Positions 4,685 to 50,774 of a stretch of 64,000 nt of DNA are shown piece after piece (positions within the stretch are counted from its first letter, which is position 1; every line of letters starts with the position of its first letter). This stretch comes from Candidatus Kaiserbacteria bacterium. Lineage in GTDB: Bacteria; Patescibacteriota; Minisyncoccia; Phycocordibacterales; UBA2100. The position numbers and the translations under genes are program-made. The DNA lies in the NCBI GenBank assembly GCA_016432285.1, contig CP066682.1, positions 352,933 through 416,932 on the forward strand, written 5' to 3'. The notes beneath the pieces were generated by a model. That model did no database searches. It had not been told where the DNA came from and worked only from the letters and a program-made list of their open reading frames with translations.

Positions 4685-5576
4685 CTCGTCGCCGACGCAT
4701 GCCTCGATCGGGTCGCGTCGCCGTCTGCTGACGGGGCGCTCCCTCTCGCGCCGTCGCGCTGCGAAAGACCCTCACGAGGCACGCGTCGACTCCTTCCGCT
4801 CGGCAGTGTGGGGGTATTGGAAGAAGAGCGGACGGCATGAGCTGCCGTGGCGAAAGACGAAAGACCCCTACCGCATTCTCGTCTCGGAAGTGATGCTCCA
4901 GCAGACGCAGGTGCCACGGGTGATCGACAAATACAAATCTTTCCTCAAAAAATTTCCGACGGTCCGCGCGCTCGCCCGTGCGCCGCTCGTTGACGTGCTC
5001 AGCGAGTGGAATGGGCTCGGATACAACAGGCGGGCGAAATATCTCAACGATGCCGCCAAAATGATCACGGCGACCTATCGCGGAAATCTTCGAGCGGCGC
5101 TGGCGCACCCCTTGCCGGGAATCGGGCCGTACACGAAATCCGCCGTGCGCGTCTTCGCGTTCAACGAGCCCGATGCATTGCTCGAAACCAACATCCGGAG
5201 CGCCTTTATCCTCCACTTTCACAGAGGACAGTCCTCTGTGGAAGATAAGGAGATTTTGCCGATGGTGCGGGAAGCCGCAAGAGGGCAGGATCCGCGAAGG
5301 TGGCATTCGGCGCTCATGGACTACGGGGCGCATATCAAAAAACTTCATCAAAACCCCAGCAGAAAAAGCGCACACTATGTCGTGCAATCGAAATTTGAAG
5401 GTTCTCGCCGACAGGTGAGAGGTGCCATATTAAAGACGCTCAGCCTCGGCCCCCGGGGCGATCTCGCGCTCGCGCAGGAGCTCTCCTTTGATGCGCGGCG
5501 CGTGCGCGAAGCGCTCTCCGGGCTTCTCAAAGATGGTCTCGTGAGCGCCAAGAAAGGCTCCTGGAAAATCGCCTGA
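4674..5576 (+). CDS. HhH-GPD superfamily DNA glycosylase (MutY/EndoIII-like, no Fe-S cluster motif seen) with a C-terminal winged-helix-like tail; the start is uncertain
   Basis: ELPWRKTKDPYRILVSEVMLQQTQV and LPGIGPYTKSAV are typical of MutY/Nth N-lobes. The ATG at 4674 overlaps the upstream gene by 11 nt and gives a Ser/Arg-rich 45-aa leader. A GTG at ~4809 is an alternative start. Confidence 0.6.
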   Translation: MSSSSSPTHASIGSRRRLLTGRSLSRRRAAKDPHEARVDSFRSAVWGYWKKSGRHELPWRKTKDPYRILVSEVMLQQTQVPRVIDKYKSFLKKFPTVRALARAPLVDVLSEWNGLGYNRRAKYLNDAAKMITATYRGNLRAALAHPLPGIGPYTKSAVRVFAFNEPDALLETNIRSAFILHFHRGQSSVEDKEILPMVREAARGQDPRRWHSALMDYGAHIKKLHQNPSRKSAHYVVQSKFEGSRRQVRGAILKTLSLGPRGDLALAQELSFDARRVREALSGLLKDGLVSAKKGSWKIA

Positions 5577-5900: not shown

Positions 5901-7781
5901 TCAAACGCTCACGATAACCGGAATGACAATCGGGCGTTTCATAGTGCGCTGCAAGAGGAAGCGCGAGACGCTCTCCGCGAGGTCATCGCGGGCGGCATCG
6001 AGGTCGACGGCGCGCGGATTGCGCATTGAGCCTTCGACGGACTTGCGGATGATAAGGCGCGTCTGATCCATGAGCTCTTTGTTGTCGCGCAGATACACGA
6101 AACCGCGCGAGATGATGTCGGGAGATTTGTGGAGGCGACCGGTACGCCGGTCGACGGTGGCGACGACGACGCAAAAGCCCTCCTGCCCAAGCGCTTTTCG
6201 GTCGCGCATCAGCACATCGGAGAGCTCGGATACGGTGTGGCCCTCGACGACGCGAAGCTCCGAGGGCGCCTTCATGGGAAGCGTCGAGATTTTCTCACCC
6301 TTCACAATCTCGATGATCGAACCGTTGTCGGGGACCACGACGTGGTTTTTCGGTACACCGAGCTCCATGGCAAGGTGCGAGTGTACGCGGAGCATGTAGT
6401 GGTAGCCGTGCACTGGCACGAAGAACTTCGGCTTCACCTGCTTGTGAATCCACACCGCCTCCTCGCGATTGCCGTGGCCGGAGGCGTGCACGTCGCTCGC
6501 GTGATAGGTGATGATGTGCGCTCCCTGGCGCGAGAGGTTGTCCTTCAGCTTTTGCACCGCGCGCTCGTTGCCGGGAATCACAGAGGAGGAGAGCACCACG
6601 GTGTCGGTGGGCTGGAGCCGGATGTGCTTGTGCGATTTGTTGCCGATGCGAGCGAGCGAGGCAAACTCGTCGCCCTGCGCGCCGGTCGCGAGAATCACCA
6701 TCCGCTCCGGCGGGTACTCTCCCATGCTCTCCACGGGCACCACCGTGTCGTCTTTGTATTTGACGAGCCCAAGCTCGCGCGCGATCTCGATGTTGGTGCG
6801 CATGGAGCGGCCGTCGATCACGATCTTCTTGCCGTACTTTTCGGCAAAGGCGATTACGCGGATGAGCCGCTCAAGGTGCGAGGCGAACATCGCGATGATG
6901 AGGCGGCCGGTCGCGTCTTTGATGATGTTTTCGAGCGTGGTGTAGACGTTCTTCTCGGGGATCGAGAAGCCGGGCTGCCAGACGTTGGTCGAGTCCATGA
7001 GAAGGAGGAGCACGTTGCGACTCTTGAAGACGCCGAACTCACGCACTTCCTCTTCGCTCGGCTGCCCGTTGTCGTGGTTGAGCTTGATGTCGCCGGTAAA
7101 AACGACGTCGCCCCATGCGGTCTCGATGATGATTCCCATCGAATCCGGCACGGTGTGCGTAACGCCGAAAAAGCGCACAGTGTGATCGCCGAGTTTGATG
7201 TGCTCATCTTTTTCGACTTCGCGGATCTGTACGGGAGTCGTTTGCGCGAATTCCTCCTGGCGCTTCTTGATCATCATGCCGGTGAGGCGGCGCGTGTAGA
7301 TGGTCGGATTGCCGATGCGGTCGATCACGTAGGGAATACCGCCGATGTGATCGAGGTGACCGTGCGAAATGAGAAGCCCGCGGATCTTGTCGCGGCGCTC
7401 TTCGAGGTAGCCGGTGTTCGGGAGGATGTAATCGATGCCGGGCGTTTCTTCTTCGCGGAACTGGAATCCAGCGTCGAGAATGAAAATGTCGTTGCCGATC
7501 TCGACGGCCGTCATGTTGCGGCCGATTTCTTCGACGCCGCCAAGCGGAATCACGCGGACCGTTTCGGGGCCGATCGGCGGGGGCGTGGCGCCCGCGGGAC
7601 GCGGGCGGCCGCTCGGCGCCTGGTGCTCGACGCGTGTGCGGCGCTGCCGCGGCGGGTGCGCAGAGCGGCCGCGCCCGCCGTAGAATCGGCCGGGACGGTT
7701 GCGCTGCGGTCGCGCATTCGGGGAGGCAGAGCGCGGTCTCCCGTGAGAGCCTGCGCCGGGGTTTTGAGGAGGTGGGTTCAT
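5901..7781 (-). CDS. rnj: ribonuclease J (metallo-beta-lactamase/beta-CASP RNase) with a ~75-aa Arg/Pro/Gly-rich N-terminal extension
   Basis: Contains the HGHLDHIGG motif and beta-CASP region. Its start overlaps the upstream SBP gene stop by 4 nt (ATGA). Confidence 0.85.
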   Translation of the reverse strand: MNPPPQNPGAGSHGRPRSASPNARPQRNRPGRFYGGRGRSAHPPRQRRTRVEHQAPSGRPRPAGATPPPIGPETVRVIPLGGVEEIGRNMTAVEIGNDIFILDAGFQFREEETPGIDYILPNTGYLEERRDKIRGLLISHGHLDHIGGIPYVIDRIGNPTIYTRRLTGMMIKKRQEEFAQTTPVQIREVEKDEHIKLGDHTVRFFGVTHTVPDSMGIIIETAWGDVVFTGDIKLNHDNGQPSEEEVREFGVFKSRNVLLLLMDSTNVWQPGFSIPEKNVYTTLENIIKDATGRLIIAMFASHLERLIRVIAFAEKYGKKIVIDGRSMRTNIEIARELGLVKYKDDTVVPVESMGEYPPERMVILATGAQGDEFASLARIGNKSHKHIRLQPTDTVVLSSSVIPGNERAVQKLKDNLSRQGAHIITYHASDVHASGHGNREEAVWIHKQVKPKFFVPVHGYHYMLRVHSHLAMELGVPKNHVVVPDNGSIIEIVKGEKISTLPMKAPSELRVVEGHTVSELSDVLMRDRKALGQEGFCVVVATVDRRTGRLHKSPDIISRGFVYLRDNKELMDQTRLIIRKSVEGSMRNPRAVDLDAARDDLAESVSRFLLQRTMKRPIVIPVIVSV

Positions 7782-12679: not shown

Positions 12680-15600
12680 TTGAAGCACATGGGAACAACG
12701 ACCCGTGGAATTTTCAGTGTTGCGTTTTTCCTGATTTTCTACGCCTTTTTTCTTGTGCCACCTGCGGTGGCTACAATCGACGACTCCGCCGATCGAACGT
12801 GCGTGCCATTTCTTGCTGTATGCGGATGTGGTGAGACGTTGCAAAACAATACGTGCGTGAAGGTAACTTCCGAAAACACCGGTCTTAAGTCCAACGGTGT
12901 CAACATGAACGGATGCAAGTGCCAGAGCACGGAAAAACCGGCGGGTGGCACTTGCAGAGCGGTACGGGATTGCAAAGGAGAATGGTACGAGCAAAACGGC
13001 AAACGGGTCAACATCGATCCGAACGCCGAGAAGAATTTCGCGGATCTTTTGAAAGGACTTCCAAATCAACCTCCGAGCGGAGGTTCGGGACAGCAAGGGG
13101 GCGCTACACCTGATCTCTCGCCGCCGCAGCAAGCACCTTCGGAAACGAGCGATCATCAGGATTCAGAAAGCATTCAATCAGCGTTTGATCCTCTAACAGG
13201 GCAACCAATCGATCAGGGGAAGTCCGGCGATCAAAAGAATTGGGGCGAACTTCTTTCGGAGGACGAGTGGAATGATTTGGTAAAGCAAGATCAAAATCTG
13301 AGCAATCAATATCCGCCACCGACGCTGGACGAGGCGACACGGCTGCAACCAGGCTCGCCGGATACGCCATTTGATGTAGCGAAAATTGATCCGATCACGG
13401 GAGAGCCGACATACAGTGGTTTTCAAAACGGTCCGGTCCCAAACGATGAAACTGCTTCGGGGGATGAACCACGATCCGAACCGTCGTGGATGGATTCGGT
13501 CCGTGACTATGCCGGGAAAGCGTGGGACGCGATCAAGAATGAATTCGGCGGTGAGGCGGAGGCGGGTCAGGGATGCCCGAAATACAATTGTTGGGGCATC
13601 AAAAACGGCGGCAGCGGATATCAAAAATTCGGATCGGAAGAGGCCGCAGCCACACGATATCTTTCGAACTGGAAGGACTATGTCGACAAGGGATACAACA
13701 CTGTCGACAAGTATCTCAACCGATGGGTTGCCCCGAAGGAAGCCGGGACGGATCCCGAATACTATGGCCAGTATGTAAACGGAGTAAAACAAGCGATTGG
13801 CGGAAATCAGCTTGAGGCGGGCAACGCGGAGCAGGCGATCTCGATGATGAAAGCGCAAGCCCTCTACGAGCAGGGGGTCTCGGGCAGGAGCTTTCCGATC
13901 TCGGATCAGGCGATCGAGGCGGCTGCGCAACGAGTATTCGGATCGAGCTATTCCCGGGGGCCGGTGGAAGATATCGGCCCGGGAGCGGGAAGGAGTTTTG
14001 CCGCCGAGAGCTACGGCGACACGGATCGCTTTGCGCCGACGGAGGCACCCGCATGGGTGGCATCGACTCCCGGATCGACACCAGCTGATCTCGGTCTGCA
14101 ATCTGGGGTCTCTCCGTTTGGGTGGGGCAACAATTTCGACTCATACGGAGAGCCGTCCGATTCGCTCGTCGCGCAAACCGGTCCGGAAGAAACGTACGTA
14201 CCAAACGAGATCGCAAGCGGCGCGTTCGACATCGGTCCGCAGGATGTGCCGCCGCCTGTCCTCACAGACGCGCAAATCGGGGGAGGGTACAACGACCCGG
14301 ATTTCGACCCGTTCGGCGATTTCAATACGCCGGTAAACGAGCCCGCGACAGCGGACGCCGGGGATCAACAGCGCAACGAAGTCGATATTGCCGCCAACGA
14401 CGCCGAACGACAGGCGGAAATTGAGAGAGCACGAAACGAAGTCGACATCGCGGCCAACGATGCGGAGCGGCAGACGGAATTGGCTCGTGCCGAGGAGCGG
14501 CGCAACGAAGTCGATATTGCCGCCAGCGACGACGAGCGACGCCCGCTCCAGCCGAATCGCCAAGCGATCGAGCAGGCGCAGCGGGAGTATGTGGACGACT
14601 ACTTAAAGGAGTACGAGCAACGCCGTGAAGCGCAGCAACAGGCTGTAGCCAATGCGCAGAAGCAGAAGGCGCTCGACACCTTGAACGCGGCCGCGGCCGA
14701 TGTGAAAGATCGTGCCAATTCGATCGCGCAGACGGTCCGCGATCCGCAAAATCTCGACGTCAAGGATCTCGCCGCCGACGTGAAGAGCGCCCCCACCGAG
14801 CTCGCGCGTCTTCGCGCCGCCGCGCGCGAGGCGCTCGATAAGGGAGCGATCTCCAAAGAGCAGTACAACAACGTGATACGCGGGTCGGAAACGCTTCAGG
14901 GGATGGTCAGTGAGTACGCGAAGAATGACAAATATTTCAGCGAAGAATATAAAGGCCAGGTGCAAGGCGCTTTGCAGGGCAGGATTGAAACCGGCGAGAC
15001 GCGGGATCAGCTTGCGAAAGCCGGCAGCGCACTCGCGCAGGTAACCGACGTTCCGAAGACGTACACGCCGCCGCCGCGCACGCTCGGCTCAGACGCGAGC
15101 TCCGGCGTGAGCGATGCGGGGTACAGCCAGTCGCAGTCAGAAGGGTTGATCGACGGCGGCGCACTCGACTCGGGCTTCGGCCTCTCCTCGCAGCAGGTGG
15201 CCTCGCTCTACGACCAGCTCGAATTGGACGCGCAGGCGGATCAGCTGGTCGAGAGTGGGGCTCTCGACTCGGGCTTTGGCCTCACGTCGCCCCAGGTCGC
15301 ATCGCTCTACGACCATCTCGACTTGGAGAATAAAGTGGAGGGGATCGACTGGACGTCGGTTTCTTTCCACAGTCCATATACCGACACCGGTCTTTCGGAG
15401 GACATCAACGAGCAGATCCGCCTCGCGGCCGGTCCGCAGGAGTTCGTACCCGAAGAGCCGTTTGTGGAGGCGCGGCCTGATCGGAGCGGCCCGAACGATC
15501 AGGTTGCGATCAACGACGACAATCAAGTATTGCCGCTTGGTCAAAACAAGGAGGAGCTCGATCTTGAGCGGGGAGAATATGCGAAGTGGGACGACATCGT

Positions 15601-16822
15601 CCACTTTGCCGACGCGAAATCGTGGAACGACTTTGGGCAGGATGAGACGGATCGCAATTACCGCACCCCAGGCTTCCCGTCGGCTGCCGGTATCGACAAG
15701 GTCGCCGACGCGATCAGGGATGCCTCGAAAAACGTACTGGACGCATTTCGCAGCTCGGACGTGGAAGATGCGATCAAGAATTACAAAAGCCCCTACGGAG
15801 ACTACTTCGGCAACTACCTACAGTCACCGGATCCGTTCTCTCAAAGCGGCGAAGATCTGACGCGGCAGGTGCTGGCGTCCAACATTCCCGCGTCCGATCG
15901 CTTCACCCCAAGCGGGGAAGCGATTACTGAGGATGTCCTCGGGTCCAACTTCGCGCCGGTCGATTCGTCGGATCGAAGCGGCGAGGCGCTCACGCAAGAT
16001 GCGCTCGATTCCAGTTTCATCCCACCCGATTCGTTCGATCAGAGCGGGGAGGCTCTCACCGAATCCATCTCACTTTACAATCTGGCGGAATCGCAAAAGC
16101 TCATCGACGAAGGCTCGCTCGATTCTGGCTTCGACGGCTTCACCGGGGAGCAGGTAGCCGAAGCCTACCGAGACTACGCGCTGCGGAATACCGATTGGGA
16201 TCGACTCGTCTTGAACGACGACGTGCCGCAGGAAACACCTGAGGCCGATGTTTCCGATATACTGCCCGCGGATCCTTCCCAAATCGTTCCCGTAACGAAA
16301 CTCGCCGCACCAAATCAACTTATACCGAACGTGCCCGAGAAGCCGGCCGACGAGGTCAGTGCCGCCGACAAAACGGACGCGCAGTCTCCCGAAACTTCCG
16401 CCGAGGAAACTCCTGCGCAAAAGCCGCAGCTTCCAGCCGCCTGCTTCGGGCCGTCGGTCGCCGCGTGCAGTAAGGCGCTCGGCAAGGAGTGGAGCGAGAG
16501 CCGCAACGAGATCGCAAAGGATCTCGGAGTGAGCTGTACGCCCGGAAGCGCTTCCTGCAACAGGCAGATCCTAAAAGCGATCGTGGACCAAGGGGGCTTA
16601 CCACCGCCTTTGCCGCAGCCTCGAGATCCGTACTCGCGCGCGGCGCAGAATTATCCGACAGGGGACTCGCTCGTCAATTTCCTGAAAGCGGGAGGACTCC
16701 CGAGCGACTACCTCAGCCGCGCCGATTTCGCGAAGGAGAACGGCATCGACGGCTACAAAGGCACCGCGGCGCAAAACCTCCAGCTCCTCCAGTGTCTCCG
16801 AGACCCTTCCTGCAGGAAATAA
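12680..16822 (+). CDS. very large (1380 aa) secreted/surface protein: signal/TM anchor, N-terminal Cys-rich module, long acidic low-complexity region with several tandem repeat families, and a C-terminal Cys-containing module
   Basis: N-terminal hydrophobic segment (IFSVAFFLIFYAFFLVPPAVA). A Cys-rich segment spans aa 40-110. Tandem repeats include NEVDIAANDAERQxE (x3) and GALDSGFGLxSxQVASLYDxLxL (x2, with a third degenerate copy). The C-terminus has CFGPSVAACS...SCTPGSASC...LQCLRDPSC. Confidence 0.7.
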   Translation: MKHMGTTTRGIFSVAFFLIFYAFFLVPPAVATIDDSADRTCVPFLAVCGCGETLQNNTCVKVTSENTGLKSNGVNMNGCKCQSTEKPAGGTCRAVRDCKGEWYEQNGKRVNIDPNAEKNFADLLKGLPNQPPSGGSGQQGGATPDLSPPQQAPSETSDHQDSESIQSAFDPLTGQPIDQGKSGDQKNWGELLSEDEWNDLVKQDQNLSNQYPPPTLDEATRLQPGSPDTPFDVAKIDPITGEPTYSGFQNGPVPNDETASGDEPRSEPSWMDSVRDYAGKAWDAIKNEFGGEAEAGQGCPKYNCWGIKNGGSGYQKFGSEEAAATRYLSNWKDYVDKGYNTVDKYLNRWVAPKEAGTDPEYYGQYVNGVKQAIGGNQLEAGNAEQAISMMKAQALYEQGVSGRSFPISDQAIEAAAQRVFGSSYSRGPVEDIGPGAGRSFAAESYGDTDRFAPTEAPAWVASTPGSTPADLGLQSGVSPFGWGNNFDSYGEPSDSLVAQTGPEETYVPNEIASGAFDIGPQDVPPPVLTDAQIGGGYNDPDFDPFGDFNTPVNEPATADAGDQQRNEVDIAANDAERQAEIERARNEVDIAANDAERQTELARAEERRNEVDIAASDDERRPLQPNRQAIEQAQREYVDDYLKEYEQRREAQQQAVANAQKQKALDTLNAAAADVKDRANSIAQTVRDPQNLDVKDLAADVKSAPTELARLRAAAREALDKGAISKEQYNNVIRGSETLQGMVSEYAKNDKYFSEEYKGQVQGALQGRIETGETRDQLAKAGSALAQVTDVPKTYTPPPRTLGSDASSGVSDAGYSQSQSEGLIDGGALDSGFGLSSQQVASLYDQLELDAQADQLVESGALDSGFGLTSPQVASLYDHLDLENKVEGIDWTSVSFHSPYTDTGLSEDINEQIRLAAGPQEFVPEEPFVEARPDRSGPNDQVAINDDNQVLPLGQNKEELDLERGEYAKWDDIVHFADAKSWNDFGQDETDRNYRTPGFPSAAGIDKVADAIRDASKNVLDAFRSSDVEDAIKNYKSPYGDYFGNYLQSPDPFSQSGEDLTRQVLASNIPASDRFTPSGEAITEDVLGSNFAPVDSSDRSGEALTQDALDSSFIPPDSFDQSGEALTESISLYNLAESQKLIDEGSLDSGFDGFTGEQVAEAYRDYALRNTDWDRLVLNDDVPQETPEADVSDILPADPSQIVPVTKLAAPNQLIPNVPEKPADEVSAADKTDAQSPETSAEETPAQKPQLPAACFGPSVAACSKALGKEWSESRNEIAKDLGVSCTPGSASCNRQILKAIVDQGGLPPPLPQPRDPYSRAAQNYPTGDSLVNFLKAGGLPSDYLSRADFAKENGIDGYKGTAAQNLQLLQCLRDPSCRK

Positions 16823-24918: not shown

Positions 24919-24922
24919 ACCC

Positions 24923-25342
24923 GTCTGCGTCAGGCAATCGCCCCGCGTAAGCGGGGAGGAAAGTCCGGACACGCACATTGTTCTTACGATGTAGCAGGGT
25001 AGCGGGTAACGCCCGTCCGAGTAATTCGAGGGATGCGAACAGAGACGCCGAAGCCGAGAGGCGACGGCTCCTACCGAGGTTTAACCTCGGTCGGATGAGG
25101 CCCGCAGCAATGCGGGAGTGCAACGGCAAAAATCCTACCTGCGTGCAAGGTCGTGACCCATGGGATAATGCGCTCCGAATAGTTCGGCTGATCCGGAGAG
25201 ATGAATAAAATCCGATTTTCCGAAATGTGCGGATCGCGTTATCCCACGGGTAGAACCGCTCGAGGTGATCGGCAACGATCATCCCAGATACATGATTGCC
25301 TCGTCCTTCGGGATCAGACAGAATCCGGCTCATGACGCAGAA
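24923..25342 (+). ncRNA. rnpB: RNase P RNA (bacterial type A)
   Basis: Conserved P4 motifs GGAGGAAAGTCCGGAC (5') and ACAGAATCCGGCT (3'). P1 pairs ctgcgtcagg (24925-34) with catgacgcag (25331-40). A terminator follows. Confidence 0.85.
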
Positions 25343-25346
25343 CGAA

Positions 25347-25376
25347 CCCCGCCGCAAGGCGGGGTTTGCTTTTTTA
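25347..25376 (+). terminator. rho-independent terminator after rnpB
   Basis: ccccgccgcaaggcgggg hairpin followed by tttgctttttt. Confidence 0.65.
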
Positions 25377-30320: not shown

Positions 30321-30405
30321 GAGGCTCTCGGCACTCTGCGGCTCGCTGAGATGAAAAAAGGGGAATCGGCATTAGGGTGGTTGTCTGTTAGGATAGGGCT
30401 TCTTA

Positions 30406-30443
30406 CATGAATATCCGCAACTTCTCAATCATCGCACCCATCG
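30406..30443 (+). pseudogene. degenerate duplicate of the lepA 5' end (pseudo-start MNIRNFSIIAPIV...), part of an att-like direct repeat
   Basis: 30406-30443 aligns to 30577-30614 (real lepA start) with 33/38 identities, including a 19-bp perfect DR aacttctcaatcatcgcac (30419-30437 and 30589-30607). The frame terminates after 55 codons. Confidence 0.6.
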
Positions 30444-30465
30444 TCGCGGCACGCCGCTCCCTGAG

Positions 30466-30555
30466 AACCCACGGTTCTCAGCGGTCGACCTGCGCGCACT
30501 CGGTCGACCTGCTCTCCGTCACGGGAAAACTACAGTTTTCCCGACCCCTTTCGAA
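30466..30555. repeat. copy A of a conserved ~90-nt structured intergenic element (perfect 9-bp stem hairpin cgggaaaac-N4-gttttcccg at 30522-30543)
   Basis: Shares aacccacggttYtc...cacgggaaaacNNNNgttttcccgacccctttcRaa with copy B at 35082-35160. The middle segment differs between copies but is palindromic in both. Confidence 0.7.
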
Positions 30556-30576
30556 CGATGTGAGCGATTTCTGAAT

Positions 30577-32358
30577 ATGCACATCAGAAACTTCTCAATC
30601 ATCGCACACATCGATCATGGCAAGTCGACGCTTGCGGATCGTATGCTCGAAATCACGGGTACGATCGAGCCGCGCCGCATGCAGGAGCAGGTGCTCGATC
30701 GCATGGACTTGGAGCGCGAGCGCGGCATCACGATCAAAATGCAGCCCGTGCGGATGCGGTGGAATCATGAGGGCGCCGATTACATTCTCAATCTTATCGA
30801 CACGCCCGGACACGTTGATTTTGCATACGAAGTCTCGCGAGCGCTCTCCGCGGTCGAGGGCGTGATTCTGCTCGTGGACGCGACGCAGGGCGTGGAGGCA
30901 CAGACGCTCTCCGTGCTTTCGGTGGCAAAGAGCCTCGGCCGCACCATCATTCCGGTCGTGTCGAAGATCGACGCGCCGGCGGCGCGTGTGGAGGAACATG
31001 TGGCGGAGCTTGCGCTCCTTTTGGGGTGCGAGGAGCGCGACGTGCTCCGGAGCTCCGGCAAGACGGGCGAAGGCGTGCCCGCTCTCTTGAACGCGATTGT
31101 CGAGCGGATCGCGCCGCCCGAGAGCACGGGCGAGAAGACCCAGGCCCTCGTCTTCGATTTCGGCTATTCGGATCATCGCGGCGTGATCATCTACATGCGC
31201 GTCTTTGGCGGTTCCGTAAAAAAGGGCGACGAGCTGCGCCTCGCGGCGGCCGACGCCTCGTTCACTGCGCTCGAAGTGGGAGTTTTGATGCCTGAAGAAA
31301 AGCCGTGCGGAGAGTTGCTCGCGGGAGAGATTGGCTACGTCGTTACCGGCATCAAAAAACCGGGCATCGCCTCCGTCGGCGACACGGTTACGGCCGCAAA
31401 AAATGCCGCGCCCCCGTTTTCTGGCTACCAAGCGCCGTCGCCCGTCATCTGGGCTTCCGCGTATCCGGAGTCGCAAGACGATTTGCCGCTCCTACGGCAG
31501 TCGCTCGAGCGCCTGCGGCTCTCGGATTCGTCGCTTTCGTATGAAGAAGAATCTTCGGGCGTGATGGGCAAGGGATTCCGCTGCGGCTTCCTTGGCATGC
31601 TGCACCTCGAGATCGTTATCGAGCGGCTCCGCCGGGAGTTTGGTCTCTCACTCGTCGTCACGCAACCGACGACCGTCTACGAAATCACACGCACCAACGG
31701 CAAGGTGGAGGAAATCTACGCGCCCGCGCGTTTTCCCGACGACGGAACGGTGGCGAAAGTGCGGGAAGTCTGGGCGAAGGTATTCGTGATCTCGCCGCCA
31801 GATTATATCGGTGGTGTGTCGCAGCTTTTGTATGAGCATGAGGCGAAGGTGGGGGAGACGGAAACGATGCCCGACGGCAAGATGCAGCTTTCGGCCGAGA
31901 TGCCGCTGCGGGAGCTCATGCGGGGATTCTTCGATCGACTCAAGAGCATCTCATCCGGATTCGCCTCGCTCTCGTACGAGCTTCAGGGATTGCGCGAGGC
32001 CGACGTCACGCGGCTCGACGTACTGGTGGCGGAAGAGCTCGTCCCGGCTTTTGCGCGCATCGTGAGCCGCCGGCGACTCCAGACGGAGGCCGAGGCCATG
32101 GTGGAAAGACTCGAAAAGCTTTTGCCGCGGCAGCTCTTCGAGCTGAAGATTCAGGCGAAGGTAGCCGGGAGGATCATCGCCTCACGTAGAAAATCAGCGA
32201 TGCGCAAAGACGTGACGGGCTATCTCTATGGCGGCGACGTGACGCGAAAGATGAAACTGCTCGAAAAACAAAAACGCGGCAAAAAGAAAATGCTCGCGCG
32301 CGGCAAGGTGGATATACCCCACGATGTTTTCCTAAAGGTGGTGCGGGAGACCAACTAG
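30577..32358 (+). CDS. lepA: elongation factor 4 (LepA)
   Basis: N-terminus IRNFSIIAHIDHGKSTLADR, G-domain motifs and the LepA C-terminal domain. Length 593 aa. Confidence 0.9.
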   Translation: MHIRNFSIIAHIDHGKSTLADRMLEITGTIEPRRMQEQVLDRMDLERERGITIKMQPVRMRWNHEGADYILNLIDTPGHVDFAYEVSRALSAVEGVILLVDATQGVEAQTLSVLSVAKSLGRTIIPVVSKIDAPAARVEEHVAELALLLGCEERDVLRSSGKTGEGVPALLNAIVERIAPPESTGEKTQALVFDFGYSDHRGVIIYMRVFGGSVKKGDELRLAAADASFTALEVGVLMPEEKPCGELLAGEIGYVVTGIKKPGIASVGDTVTAAKNAAPPFSGYQAPSPVIWASAYPESQDDLPLLRQSLERLRLSDSSLSYEEESSGVMGKGFRCGFLGMLHLEIVIERLRREFGLSLVVTQPTTVYEITRTNGKVEEIYAPARFPDDGTVAKVREVWAKVFVISPPDYIGGVSQLLYEHEAKVGETETMPDGKMQLSAEMPLRELMRGFFDRLKSISSGFASLSYELQGLREADVTRLDVLVAEELVPAFARIVSRRRLQTEAEAMVERLEKLLPRQLFELKIQAKVAGRIIASRRKSAMRKDVTGYLYGGDVTRKMKLLEKQKRGKKKMLARGKVDIPHDVFLKVVRETN

Positions 32359-34999: not shown

Positions 35000-35073
35000 G
35001 CCCAGATAGCTCAGGTAGTAGAGCATTCCCCTGAAGAGGGAAGGGTCGTCAGTGCAAATCTGACTCTGGGCAC
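35000..35073 (+). tRNA. tRNA-Phe (anticodon GAA)
   Basis: Acceptor GCCCAGA/TCTGGGC, D-arm GCTCAGGTAGTAGAGC, anticodon loop CTGAAGA, T-arm GTCAGTGCAAATCTGAC, discriminator A. Confidence 0.85.
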
Positions 35074-35081
35074 CTCTTGGA

Positions 35082-35160
35082 AACCCACGGTTTTCCAACG
35101 CTCGCTTCGCGAGCTGTCTTCCTCCACGGGAAAACAATTGTTTTCCCGACCCCTTTCAAA
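35082..35160. repeat. copy B of the conserved structured element (hairpin cgggaaaac-aatt-gttttcccg at 35127-35148), 8 nt downstream of the tRNA-Phe 3' end
   Basis: Aligns with copy A (30466-30555). Flanks and hairpin stems are identical. The central segment holds a different palindrome (gctcgcttcgcgagc). Confidence 0.7.
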
Positions 35161-35296
35161 GCCCAGAAGAGCCGTGCCTGCGCACGGCTCGTGTCGGATT
35201 TGCAAGCCGGAGCCATGTCGCCTTGGCGACAGGCGAGGCCGGGCAGGAGCCACTTAACGAGCGCAGCGAGTTTAGTGAGCTGTCGCCAAATCTGAC

Positions 35297-35315
35297 TCTG
35301 GGCACACAAAAAAAT
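35297..35315. repeat. 19-bp perfect direct repeat caaatctgactctgggcac duplicating the tRNA-Phe 3' end (first copy 35055-35073)
   Basis: Exact 19/19 match 242 bp downstream. This is an att-like duplication bracketing element copy B. Confidence 0.7.
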
Positions 35316-35776: not shown

Positions 35777-36352
35777 CTACAGCCCCAGGGTAAACGTCAT
35801 TGGCTTTGCGCCCGCGACGAGCCACTTTGAGGTGTCGAGCTTGATCTCGCGTGTGGTTCCGAGATCCTTGTATTTCAAGCTGCCTTTCTGGAGTGCGTAG
35901 TCGAAGACCCGCTTCGTGAGCTCCACGTCTTTTTGGCAGTACATCTTCACTTTTTCCACCTCTCCCTGCTTCCACCATTTCAGCGACAGCGAGCCGTCGC
36001 CACTCTTGCCCTCGCCGAGCGTCCCGGCTGCCACCGAATCGAGCTTCAGCCGCCGCCCGAGCGATGAGTAGATCTCCTGCAAGAGGTCGAGGCTCTTGAT
36101 GCGTTTCAAATCCCCCGGGTAGTATTTATTGAGAAGCGGAATGTCAAAATAATCAGAATTGTAACCCACGAGCATGTCGGTACGCTCCAAAATGGGCCAG
36201 AGCTGCGGCAGCTCGTTCTCCAAAAAGCAGGAGTACTGATTCGTCTCCGAATCGTGAATCCCGACGACTGCAATCGTGAGGTCGGACGGATCTCCCGAGC
36301 CCGTCTCGCTCATCCAGTTCGCGGTCTCAATGTCAAAAACAACCGTTCGCAT
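35777..36352 (-). CDS. RNase H-like 3'-5' exonuclease (DnaQ/PolB-exo-like domain protein)
   Basis: Exo motif I (VVFDIETAN), motif II (LVGYNSDYFDIPLL) and motif III (YCQKDVELT). Confidence 0.65.
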   Translation of the reverse strand: MRTVVFDIETANWMSETGSGDPSDLTIAVVGIHDSETNQYSCFLENELPQLWPILERTDMLVGYNSDYFDIPLLNKYYPGDLKRIKSLDLLQEIYSSLGRRLKLDSVAAGTLGEGKSGDGSLSLKWWKQGEVEKVKMYCQKDVELTKRVFDYALQKGSLKYKDLGTTREIKLDTSKWLVAGAKPMTFTLGL

Positions 36353-48801: not shown

Positions 48802-49281
48802 CTACTCAAACTGATGTCCGATAACGTTGTCGGGATCGGATTTATTGAAAAGCTTTTCGCTGCCCTCAAGAAGGTACACACTTTTGATGCCCGCATCGAT
48901 CATCGTGCTCCAGCACGGCTCGCAGCACCACCAGTGGCCCCATAAATACAAATCTGCGCCCTTTGTATCTGCGCCGCTCTCCTTTGCGTTGCGGATCGCG
49001 GATGCCTCACTGTGATTCTCGTAGCCGCAGCCTGCGCAGAGCTCGTATCCGGTGCCCGTCGGGACGTTGTGCTTCTCACGCTCGCAGCCGTTTGTGTGCG
49101 GACCGGCGCCGATCGATCCGCGACCAATGATCGCGCCGTCTTTCACGATCACCGCCGCGCCCACGTGCCGGATCGTGTTGTTCTCCTTCGCGAAATCGCG
49201 CGCCGCCGCCATCCACGGATTCTCGAGGCGTACATACTCGATCGATCGGCCGGCGGGAAGATACGGGTAGGGGATCGTCAT
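48802..49281 (-). CDS. dCMP deaminase (cytidine/deoxycytidylate deaminase family)
   Basis: HSEASAI ... CCEPC zinc-binding motifs. The ORF-track entry 48802..50178 is chimeric: its 5' 900 nt is antisense to thyA. The start was trimmed to ATG 49281 (MTIPYPY). Confidence 0.85.
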   Translation of the reverse strand: MTIPYPYLPAGRSIEYVRLENPWMAAARDFAKENNTIRHVGAAVIVKDGAIIGRGSIGAGPHTNGCEREKHNVPTGTGYELCAGCGYENHSEASAIRNAKESGADTKGADLYLWGHWWCCEPCWSTMIDAGIKSVYLLEGSEKLFNKSDPDNVIGHQFE

Positions 49282-49305
49282 TGCCAAAATGTAGCACGTA
49301 GTACA

Positions 49306-50154
49306 ATGAGTCTCCTTATGGCCCGGTTCGACGAGATCTACCAGGAGATGCTCGGGAAGATCATGAAAGAGGGCGTGCGGCAGGTTTCGGGCCGCAACCA
49401 GCACGAAACGGTCGCGATCCCGGGGATGCACTTTTCGATAGACGTGGAAAAGGAGGGCTTCCCGCTTCTCACGCTCCGCAAGATACCGGTCAAGATGTTC
49501 GTGGCGGAGCAGATCTGGTTTATCGCGGGAGTGCGGAAGCCGTCGGATTTTTTGGAGGATTTCACGAAAATTTGGAATGAGTTCACGAATCCCGCGGGCG
49601 TCGTCACGGTGGCCTACGGCTACCGCTGGCGCAAGCACTTCGGCCGCGATCAGCTCGGCCTCCTCGTGAAATTGTTGAAGAAGGATCCGAGCTCTCGCCA
49701 CGGCGTGATCGTTACATGGGACCCCTCTGAAGACGGACTCGGTGGCACCAAAAGAATGAACGTGCCATGCCCGTACTCGTTTACCGTCAACATCATCGGC
49801 GGGCGGCTGCACCTCCACAACATCGTGCGCTCCAACGACATGGTGCTCGGATTTCCATCCGACGTCGCGGGCTTTGCGCTTTTGCAGTGCATCCTCGCGC
49901 AAAAGCTCGGCGTCGCTCCGGGCATATACAGCCACTCGATCTCCAACGCACACGTCTGGGACAATCAGTATCCGGTTGCCGAAGAGCTCTTGAAGCGAAA
50001 AAGCGAACATCCTGCGATCAAAGTGGTGTTGCCCAAAAACACGTTCGATCGCGCGGAGAAAAAAGACAAGAAATTGGTCGACGAGATCGTGAATCCGATC
50101 GCCGCGCAGTACCAGCCGCTTCCCGCGATTTCCGGCATGCAAATTGTGCTTTGA
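49306..50154 (+). CDS. thyA: thymidylate synthase (ThyA, folate-dependent)
   Basis: ThyA motifs (RLHLHNIVRSNDMVLGFPSDVAGFALLQ, PCPYSF). The start is ATG 49306 or the in-frame ATG at 49318 (MARFDEIYQ aligns with E. coli M1). A -10-like TACAAT overlaps the start. Confidence 0.9.
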   Translation: MSLLMARFDEIYQEMLGKIMKEGVRQVSGRNQHETVAIPGMHFSIDVEKEGFPLLTLRKIPVKMFVAEQIWFIAGVRKPSDFLEDFTKIWNEFTNPAGVVTVAYGYRWRKHFGRDQLGLLVKLLKKDPSSRHGVIVTWDPSEDGLGGTKRMNVPCPYSFTVNIIGGRLHLHNIVRSNDMVLGFPSDVAGFALLQCILAQKLGVAPGIYSHSISNAHVWDNQYPVAEELLKRKSEHPAIKVVLPKNTFDRAEKKDKKLVDEIVNPIAAQYQPLPAISGMQIVL

Positions 50155-50157
50155 GCA

Positions 50158-50774
50158 TGGATGATCTAAATAAGCCACTTACGGCGAGACAGGGTATTGA
50201 GCGAGAAGCCCAGCTTTCCTTTTTGAAGAAAATTTTTGAGAGTCAGCTTCCGGTGTATTTGGTAGGCGGCCTTGCGGATGACGCACTCCTCCATAAAAAG
50301 GCCACAAGACGTCACCAAGATGTCGACTTTTTGGCATCGCGCCACGATTCGGACCTGTTAATAGAGGAACTTTCGCGTATGGGCTACAGAGTTCGTGAAG
50401 AGGGACCGGTCCCGCTGCGAGAGAGCCCATATAAGCTGTCTATCCTGGGGAATAACATCAAAGCGGAAGTCGTTTTTTACGATAGAGATCAAAACGGCGA
50501 ATCTTATGTCGCACTATCGAACCCCATGATGGGTGAAAGGTTGCGGGTGTATGTCGATATGAAGGAAGCGATGCCTGCTCAGCAGATCAATGGTATCGAA
50601 GTGAAGACGGTTTCCACACTTACCCTCATACGTCTAAAAGACGAATACCATCAGGCGGGAGCGCCCGAATCCAACCCTCAACAGGTTCGAACTAGGAATA
50701 GACTCATTGACAAGTTCTACCCCGGAGAAAATCCTGATTCTGACAAATTCAAGCTTCGGATCGAGAAAGAGTGA
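50158..50774 (+). CDS. Pol-beta-superfamily nucleotidyltransferase (ANT(2'')/LinB-like small NTase); lower-GC gene inserted between thyA and dcd
   Basis: The GG-x-DDAL...HQDVDFL motif (GS...D-x-D) of minimal nucleotidyltransferases. Local GC is ~48% against ~62% in the flanks. Its ATG is 4 nt after the thyA stop, and its stop overlaps the dcd ATG. Confidence 0.65.

Follow-up and report, generated by a model that had tools for sequence, protein, structure and literature searches.

Why should a conserved gene carry its own start twice, and what is the DNA that lies between the two copies? This question is raised by lepA, the gene of elongation factor 4 (593 aa; 30577-32358, plus strand), in a 64,000-nt stretch of a Candidatus Kaiserbacteria genome (assembly GCA_016432285.1, contig CP066682.1, positions 352,933 to 416,932), hereafter called the window, whose own numbering is used below. 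We were able to show that the DNA between the two copies holds a hairpin element, here called E, that is absent from the same place in two relatives, and that E recurs beside many other genes, where it is mostly bracketed by copies of the gene end. We consider it likely that these E units represent a previously undescribed family of miniature, protein-less and non-autonomous integrative elements of Patescibacteria which target the termini of genes. Patescibacteria possess genomes of about 1 Mb and are usually considered to be poor in mobile DNA. In this group, a gene-free element of 94-398 bp has colonised the ends of highly conserved genes, including those for tRNAs, elongation factor G (EF-G), LepA, TypA, the ribosomal protein L33 and UvrB.

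The duplicated lepA start and its empty sites

The first 37 nt of lepA (30577-30613) are found again at 30407-30443, with 32 of 37 positions identical (86%). Both copies contain the perfect 19-mer AACTTCTCAATCATCGCAC (30419-30437 and 30589-30607), which occurs at these two places only within the 64 kb, compared with a shuffle expectation of 0.04. The upstream, orphan copy opens with an ATG at 30407, is translated as MNIRNFSIIAPIV and shows, in comparison to the working gene, a CGC/AGA difference that is a synonymous change of an Arg codon. The duplicated start with its 19-bp core, the upstream ATG and the synonymous Arg codon had already been recognised in the original prediction, which was made from the letters alone, and the sequence bears out all of them. 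The repeat itself had been given as 38 nt with 33 identities; its left edge, however, has to be moved from 30406 to the ATG at 30407, and a recount in the 38-nt register yields 32/38. The 133 nt between the repeats (30444-30576) do carry the proposed hairpin element. The duplication that flanks the insert at lepA is real.

The lepA loci of relatives (L120, L128 and L129; L-numbers denote loci retrieved from other genomes) show which of the two ends is native. Among the closest LepA homologues, with 79-85% identity, most begin with MNIRNFSIIAH, like the orphan copy, while the LepA of the window begins with MHIR. In the closest relative (L120, 85%) murJ and lepA are separated by 68 bp, and in L128 by 50 bp, and the element is absent from both. 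The upstream DNA and the gene start of L120 (..TAGGAT..TTCTGGCATGAATATCCGCAA..) align base for base to the flank of the window and its orphan copy, after which a gap of 170 bp opens; the TAGGAT motif of the murJ-lepA intergenic DNA is present in L128 as well. Since the upstream regions and the MNIR/ATGAATATCCGC start of these empty sites match the flank and the orphan copy, the orphan is the resident 5' end of lepA, whereas the 12 nt with which the working gene now opens (ATGCACATCAGA) came with the insert, the exchange probably having taken place in or near the 19-nt core. As judged from the alignment, the outer side of each junction is native and the inner side belongs to the element, which is the geometry of a reciprocal exchange. 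A clean empty site in relatives, which the original prediction had proposed to look for, was thus found in L120 and L128; its suggestion that the upstream copy was once coding holds, whereas the other possibility offered, a lepA of foreign origin, does not, because this copy matches the MNIR start and the upstream DNA of the relatives. The third locus, L129, contains a decayed E relic upstream of lepA (L129 1440-1600), which has retained the tail CCCGACCCCTTTCG together with a P-loop copy in inverted orientation, while its second hairpin is destroyed. Altogether, three of the four relatives examined have no intact copy at the orthologous position.

The unit at lepA most plausibly comprises 170 bp, 30444-30613 or equivalently 30407-30576, and all its parts are given here on the plus strand. 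It is preceded by native murJ-lepA intergenic DNA (flank 'a', 30321-30406, including TAGGAT), as delimited by alignment to the L120 upstream region. The orphaned native 5' end (X1 or T1, 30407-30443, assigned by the starts of the relatives and the L120 alignment) consists of the ATG and 12 codons, MNIRNFSIIAPI, and includes the left copy of the 19-nt core (30419-30437), the probable crossover region. Its last bases, CCCATCG, are a mutated, element-borne arm, in which GCACAC has been changed to GCACCC at the E-proximal end. The E core (30444-30555) follows, with the hairpins hp0 (30446-30457), hp1 (30461-30481, CTGAGAACC CAC GGTTCTCAG) and the optional hp1b (30483-30509), a pyrimidine-rich linker (CTCTCCGTCAC), then hp2 (30523-30542, GGGAAAAC TACA GTTTTCCC, continued by the near-invariant GACCCCTTTC) and the tail GACCCCTTTCGAA (30543-30555). 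Directly behind the tail lies an inverted copy of the target, X' (30556-30567, CGATGTGAGCGA), which is complementary to TCGCaCACATCG and represents the reverse complement of the codons for IAHID; this feature, which is present in most units, had been missed by the original prediction. A spacer of 9 nt (TTTCTGAAT, 30568-30576), predicted to pair with codons 3-5 of the new lepA start, leads to X2 or T2 (30577-30613), the functional start, whose first 12 nt (MHIR) are element-borne and which includes the right copy of the core (30589-30607). According to the predicted fold, X' can pair with X1 and thereby close E as a multi-branch loop, or alternatively with X2, in which case the ATG of lepA would be located in a hairpin loop (z = -4.9).

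The orphan ATG starts an open reading frame (ORF) of 55 codons (30407-30574) that passes through E and ends with a TGA (30572-30574) 2 nt before the ATG of lepA (TGA-AT-ATG). The frame of the orphan ATG is open through E in 13 of 13 loci at 5' ends of GTPase genes, compared with 42% of all frames over that span, and the position of its stop ranges from 27 nt upstream of the real start codon to slightly overlapping it; the nominal probability is ~1e-5 for loci that are not independent of each other. This suggests selection against polarity, with coupling of termination and re-initiation. Ribosomes might begin translation at the orphan ATG and continue across E as far as the stop, 2 nt short of the new ATG, from where they would re-initiate on lepA, which is probably still served by its native promoter. 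In L129, the E tail and X' were joined to LepA by gene prediction, and the resulting protein of 617 aa has a spurious N-terminal extension (..SPDPFRDVGDD..), an example of how elements of this type can corrupt annotations.

A structured core beside many gene ends

The core search motif GGGAAAACNNNNGTTTTCCCGACCCC was found in at least 119 contigs of species-representative genomes. Nearly all of these are labelled Patescibacteria and include Saccharibacteria, many Parcubacteria lineages, Berkelbacteria and Kazan; the few contigs with other labels possibly result from mis-binning. When bracketing was defined as a flanking direct repeat scoring at least 12, gene-end direct repeats were found around 72 of 105 analysable loci and around none of the 105 shuffled controls. 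The units have a median length of 176 bp (range 94-398 bp), and the repeats are 13-85 nt long. The 3' end of a tRNA gene is found 60-110 nt away from about 70 of 122 units, with ~19 tRNA types represented, and the repeats at these targets extend from the tRNA 3' end to the T-loop. The protein targets, as inferred from translated flanks, comprise the 5' ends of lepA, typA, fusA (P-loop-proximal), dinB-like and murD-like genes and the 3' ends of rpmG and uvrB. No junction sequence or att core is shared among the ~19 tRNA types and at least seven protein genes, and E occurs in either orientation relative to the target, beside dozens of unrelated genes. Differences between X1 and X2 at protein targets are synonymous or conservative, as expected for copies from different functional alleles. 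At tRNA targets the spacer forms a bidirectional terminator, whereas at 5' gene ends it is AT-rich and resembles a promoter. Tandem units were observed in L004, L019, L076 and L098.

The E core of the lepA unit (copy A) shows 80-81% identity to units that occupy GTPase 5' ends in metagenome-assembled genomes labelled as Saccharibacteria (L005, L008), but only 73% to the second copy of the window (copy B, see below). GTPase-associated units have a common signature: their hp1 has GAGAACC, hp1b is present and the loop is TACA. Going by these similarities, E lineages follow the target class across distant hosts, and the element appears to move between such hosts, which makes it a marker of horizontal DNA flow in uncultivated symbionts. 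Eight loci (L006, L021, L024, L031, L058, L083, L103 and L114) form a subgroup with the left flank ..CCACCCTCCCCC and a GCAAAT..ATTTGC hp0; a small terminator and GGGTACTCCCTCC..GGGAGAC stand directly after E in this subgroup, and no obvious gene-end repeat is seen.

The fold of the core is conserved by compensatory changes. A covariance model built from 61 E copies recovered all pattern-defined copies and several divergent ones. Among 121 distinct copies, compensatory double changes were observed in all 8 base pairs of hp1 and in 6 of the 9 pairs of hp2. Of the cells, 96.3% were found paired versus 87.4% after shuffling, and the covariation signal collapses when the partners are slid by one column. 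Pairing is kept in the variants GGGGAAAA/TTTTCCCC (L012) and in a 7-bp hp2 (L122), and compensatory variants of hp2 also occur in copies that were found without the search pattern. Moreover, the first base of the hp1 loop covaries in Watson-Crick fashion with a base of the linker (C-G in 23/29 and T-A in 15/23), which hints at a tertiary contact; subfamily structure could contribute to this signal. G-T wobbles outnumber A-C mismatches on the E strand by 31:11, weak evidence that it is this strand that folds, as RNA or as single-stranded DNA (ssDNA).

The inverted target copy is equally widespread. The E tail is followed, in most loci, by 10-20 nt that are the reverse complement of that part of X which lies next to E, and pairing of X' with X2 is seen as well in 92% of 66 loci (median 12.5 bp), where the hairpin has its tip ~16 nt beyond the repeat. 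At its E-proximal end, X1 has been altered in a lineage-consistent manner (T-loop TTCGAAC to TCTCAC; GCACAC to GCACCC), whereby a mismatched zone is created beside the cap that E would form.

Several other identities of E were considered and rejected. A protein-coding function does not fit, because conservation is at the nucleotide and not at the codon level and three different reading frames are in use. Rfam gave no match over both window copies at gathering or permissive (E<=10) thresholds and, at gathering thresholds, no E match in 18 other loci; the searches reported only tRNAs, RNase P and noise, including a chance 18.8-bit match to AaHKsRNA22. Hammerhead, hepatitis delta virus-like and other known ribozymes were dismissed for lack of core motifs and of an Rfam signal, a T-box or tRNA-like mimic because GTPase targets do not fit, and a casposon or CRISPR-type duplication in view of the variable repeat length and the missing terminal inverted repeats.

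Copy B, the only other E copy in the window according to nhmmer and the covariance model, is located directly 3' of tRNA-Phe(GAA) (35000-35074, plus strand, as are the parts that follow) in a unit that spans 35075-35306. The last 19 nt of the tRNA (35056-35074, X1) are repeated at 35288-35306 as CAAATCTGACTCTGGGCAC (X2), the displaced 3' end copy, behind which the original terminator follows. The core (35075-35160) contains hp1 (~35078-35099), hp1b, hp2 (35128-35147) and the tail (35148-35160). X' (35161-35204) is split here into GCCCAGA (35161-35167) and GTCGGATTTGCA (35193-35204) by a 9-bp hairpin; both halves together are complementary to the whole 19-nt repeat, and a spacer (35205-35287) connects them to X2. 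A clean empty site exists for this unit as well: in L123, no DNA intervenes between tRNA-Phe and the terminator that in the window stands behind X2. The same insertion is found in L122, with X', spacer and X2 ~90% identical, but the E core is replaced by 19 unrelated nt. An E unit in opposite orientation is present at tRNA-Phe in L125 and L127, and L122 possesses one at tRNA-Arg(CCT) that is absent there in the window. Units have therefore been gained, lost and eroded among Kaiserbacteria relatives.

Some further observations concern these tRNA loci. The unit at tRNA-Arg(CCT) (L122 6969-7049, minus strand) is compact, with a 7-bp hp2 (GGGAAAC/GTTTCCC) and without hp0; because such variants escape the pattern, the E family is larger than its exact-pattern matches. 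In L124 (~4850-4964, minus strand) an orphan copy of the full T-arm and acceptor 3' end, without E, stands 11 nt behind tRNA-Phe, and L126 (~5100-5257) has a decayed orphan copy at the same tRNA; both look like scars of an earlier gene-end replacement. The T-loop of tRNA-Phe, UGCAAAU, is non-canonical and does not contain the usual UUC (window 35000-35074; L122 6405-6478; L123 6533-6606), and the tRNA-Phe T-arms of other Kaiserbacteria relatives are quite different, consistent with repeated replacement of the 3' end. The 125-nt block of X' and spacer (35161-35287; L122 ~6270-6395), which includes a perfect 9-bp hairpin at ~35169-35190 and is ~90% identical in L122, is better conserved than the neighbouring protein genes would suggest; a metagenome scan with this block returned zero matches. 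Directly after hisS lies a gene with an RNase_H_2 fold (PF13482, PolB-exonuclease-like, 191 aa; 35777-36352, minus strand). It was considered as a partner of E and rejected, since it is syntenic in all six relatives L122-L127 whether E is nearby or not.

Possible routes of insertion

An E unit can be described as an E core (~90-115 nt), an X' (10-20 nt of inverted target), a spacer with expression signals and a copy of the target end, X. Under the reading that we favour, integration would be a single reciprocal exchange inside X, at lepA within the 19-nt core, which would leave the native end orphaned as X1 and join the element-borne end (X2) to the gene body, so that an essential gene would stay intact. 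X and X' may fold into a hairpin stem that mimics the duplex of the target, with E as its structured cap, and a trans-acting enzyme or the recombination machinery of the host would then swap strands with the homologous chromosomal sequence. Such a presentation of the target by an X:X' hairpin is our preferred mechanism; the intermediate would presumably be circular or a hairpin, and single-stranded at some stage. The original prediction of a miniature non-autonomous element that carries a replacement gene end agrees with the empty sites, the 72 bracketed loci and the failure to find a recombinase either within the unit or among 27 ORFs of the window. Its comparison to a remnant of the type of a cis-mobilizable element (CIME) is not supported: because more than 100 independent units keep the same small size and structured core, E units form a separate family rather than the debris of deletions.

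A bolder version of the favoured reading, possible but rather doubtful, regards E as a reprogrammable protein-less insertion cassette. The structured scaffold, as ssDNA or RNA, would display any sequence as an X/X' stem or guide, and one trans-acting enzyme of Patescibacteria, or the host machinery, would insert it at a match and rebuild the gene end. If true, this would constitute a new class, distinct from integrases, transposases, IS110 bridge-RNA and CRISPR-associated systems, and if the X/X' arms truly program targeting, it could matter for genome engineering. In either version, the family poses the question of how a structured core of ~100 nt and a target-complementary arm insert at many different sequences.

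A number of results weigh against the favoured reading. A Pfam scan of 27 mid-size ORFs of the window yielded no recombinase, transposase or reverse transcriptase (RT) domain, no ORF is encoded inside the E units, and 122 contexts showed no protein-coding relative of them. Neither a free or circular form nor a carrier among phages and plasmids came to light: IMG/VR, scanned for the exact pattern, and collections of phages and plasmids, searched by blastn, gave no match in the rows that were sampled. The model does not explain how a lineage comes by matched X and X' when the tRNA is new, and in some loci (for example L003 and L023) X' is poorly matched, comes from another tRNA or covers the T-arm only. 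The replacement of the E core by unrelated DNA in L122 indicates that the modules can be uncoupled. Part of the invariance of hp2 comes from the search pattern itself, the preference for one strand is weak, and the orientation of E shows no significant bias relative to GC skew (63 vs 44, p=0.08). Finally, the empty sites come from relatives that are ~80-85% identical at the protein level; a metagenome scan for a same-species empty or filled lepA allele returned zero matches, and no same-species filled/empty polymorphism was retrieved.

One alternative is spread by homology: E would be a passenger, host-neutral or regulatory, that hitch-hikes by RecA-dependent recombination between naturally competent Patescibacteria, with X1 as a short left arm and X2 together with the gene body as the right arm. 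Repeats of variable length that always lie in highly conserved gene termini, imported gene-end codons with synonymous X1/X2 differences and the same E subfamily at paralogous GTPases in distant hosts would all be expected from such a process. However, it accounts neither for the strong conservation and covariation of E nor for the near-universal matched X' and the rise of matched X/X' pairs for ~19 tRNAs, and arms of 13-20 nt are very short for RecA; we therefore regard it as unlikely. The variety of targets speaks against a classical site-specific integrative element or CIME for which a tyrosine or serine integrase would act in trans through one att core, the window copies being non-autonomous or remnants. 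The attL/attR-like geometry with a regenerated gene end and a crossover inside the identity block is indeed that of an integrase product, and T-loop-to-3'-end segments of tRNA genes are typical targets of tyrosine integrases. A precedent at 5' ends is provided by the dusA integrases, which are reported to target the 5' end of the gene and to supply a replacement (PMC4482086). Nevertheless, ~19 tRNA types and at least seven protein genes without a common junction, repeats of 13 to 85 nt, more than 100 units of the same tiny size with a structured core, unlike deletion remnants, the lack of an integrase in the units and in the 27 window ORFs and the failure to detect cargo or distant repeats in units without nearby repeats make this explanation quite unlikely; the site-specific reading of the original prediction is likewise not supported.

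A retro-element would insert by way of RNA: the E transcript would be reverse-transcribed, and X', turn and X2 would be a snap-back or template-switch scar at the transcript end. This would account for repeat edges at transcript ends (tRNA CCA or discriminator; 0-8 nt before the ATG), for a palindrome of X', spacer and X2 with its turn ~16 nt beyond the repeat, either around the ATG or in the loops of terminators, and for orphan copies in some loci (for example L007 and L028) which contain a TGG, the complement of CCA, that is absent from the gene. Other loci such as L079 show the opposite CCA pattern, however, no RT was seen, and group II introns are reported to be absent from Patescibacteria (PMC13011429). 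In addition, the crossover in the window lies inside X with native sequence outside both ends, which fits a reciprocal exchange better than end-primed copying, so that a retro-element appears very unlikely to us. An ancient regulatory leader of lepA, an upstream ORF or RNA switch that was never inserted, would agree with the predicted coupling of the upstream ORF to lepA, with the frames open through E in all 13 GTPase loci and with the predicted ability of X' to sequester X1 or the real start region. It is contradicted by the empty sites L120 and L128 and by the decaying relic in L129, and the same core stands beside dozens of unrelated genes on either strand; this explanation is extremely improbable.

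Relation to known systems and to the rest of the window

Integrative elements and CIMEs, including the islands at the 5' end of dusA (PMC4482086), resemble E units in the direct repeats of a gene terminus, the replacement end and the gene that stays functional, and also in the preference for the T-loop-to-3'-end segment of tRNAs. As with these elements, the target is directly repeated at filled sites and present in a single copy at empty ones (L120, L128, L123). E units, however, are gene-free and, with 94-398 bp, about 100 times smaller, and they differ in their dozens of targets without a common att core, the multi-hairpin core, the inverted target copy and the lack of a detected integrase. 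The attP(+) of the CTX phage is a folded single-stranded site that is used by XerCD (PMC3442271). It shares with E units, as does the attC of integrons, inverted target-like copies ~90-120 nt apart, an imperfect hairpin that mimics the chromosomal site, mismatches near the cap and an inverted copy that stays by one junction after integration. In contrast to both, the E stem differs from target to target and the E cap is highly conserved. The inspected E junctions contained neither dif-like arms nor R''/L''-L'/R' boxes (GTTRRRY) of the kind recognised by XerCD or IntI, their stems being tRNA or GTPase sequence, and E would only presumably be single-stranded.

MITEs (miniature transposable elements with inverted repeats), Correia elements, Rickettsia palindromic elements (RPE), repetitive extragenic palindromes and bacterial interspersed mosaic elements (REP/BIME) and IS200/IS605-derived palindrome-associated elements (PATEs) are likewise small, non-coding, multi-copy, hairpin-rich and non-autonomous, and RPE-like elements also tolerate insertion in or beside genes. 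Yet E units have no family-wide terminal inverted repeats, no target-site duplication of fixed length and no known parent insertion sequence. Their sole terminal inverted repeats are the target-derived X/X', which differ per locus, and their flanking repeats are gene-end copies of 13-85 nt with foreign alleles. The group I introns that Patescibacteria carry in their tRNA genes (PMC13011429) are, like E, abundant, RNA-structured and tRNA-associated in the same phylum; they are located in the anticodon loop, do not duplicate the exon and match Rfam, whereas E lies outside a functional gene, duplicates its end and has no Rfam match. None of these closest systems combines att-like geometry, small size and folded inverted repeats with a conserved structured core and dozens of targets. 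Full-text literature searches found no description of such an element, and the family, although widespread, is apparently undescribed. Its recognition explains odd annotations such as an N-terminally extended LepA, orphan 3' halves of tRNAs and strongly divergent tRNA T-arms among close relatives.

Three other features of the window deserve mention. A gene for bacterial RNase P RNA of class A (117 bits) is located at 24922-25348, where spurious ORFs overlap it on both strands. At 12680-16822, an ORF of 1380 aa contains internal tandem DNA repeats (14371-14540 and 15132-15327), consisting of three copies ~60-69 nt apart and two 99-nt copies, with 78-93% identity; it probably encodes a repeat-containing surface protein. 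The 458-aa ORF at 48802-50178 (minus strand) has only a C-terminal domain of the cytidine/deoxycytidylate deaminase type (also MafB19-like) and is reminiscent of polymorphic toxin modules.

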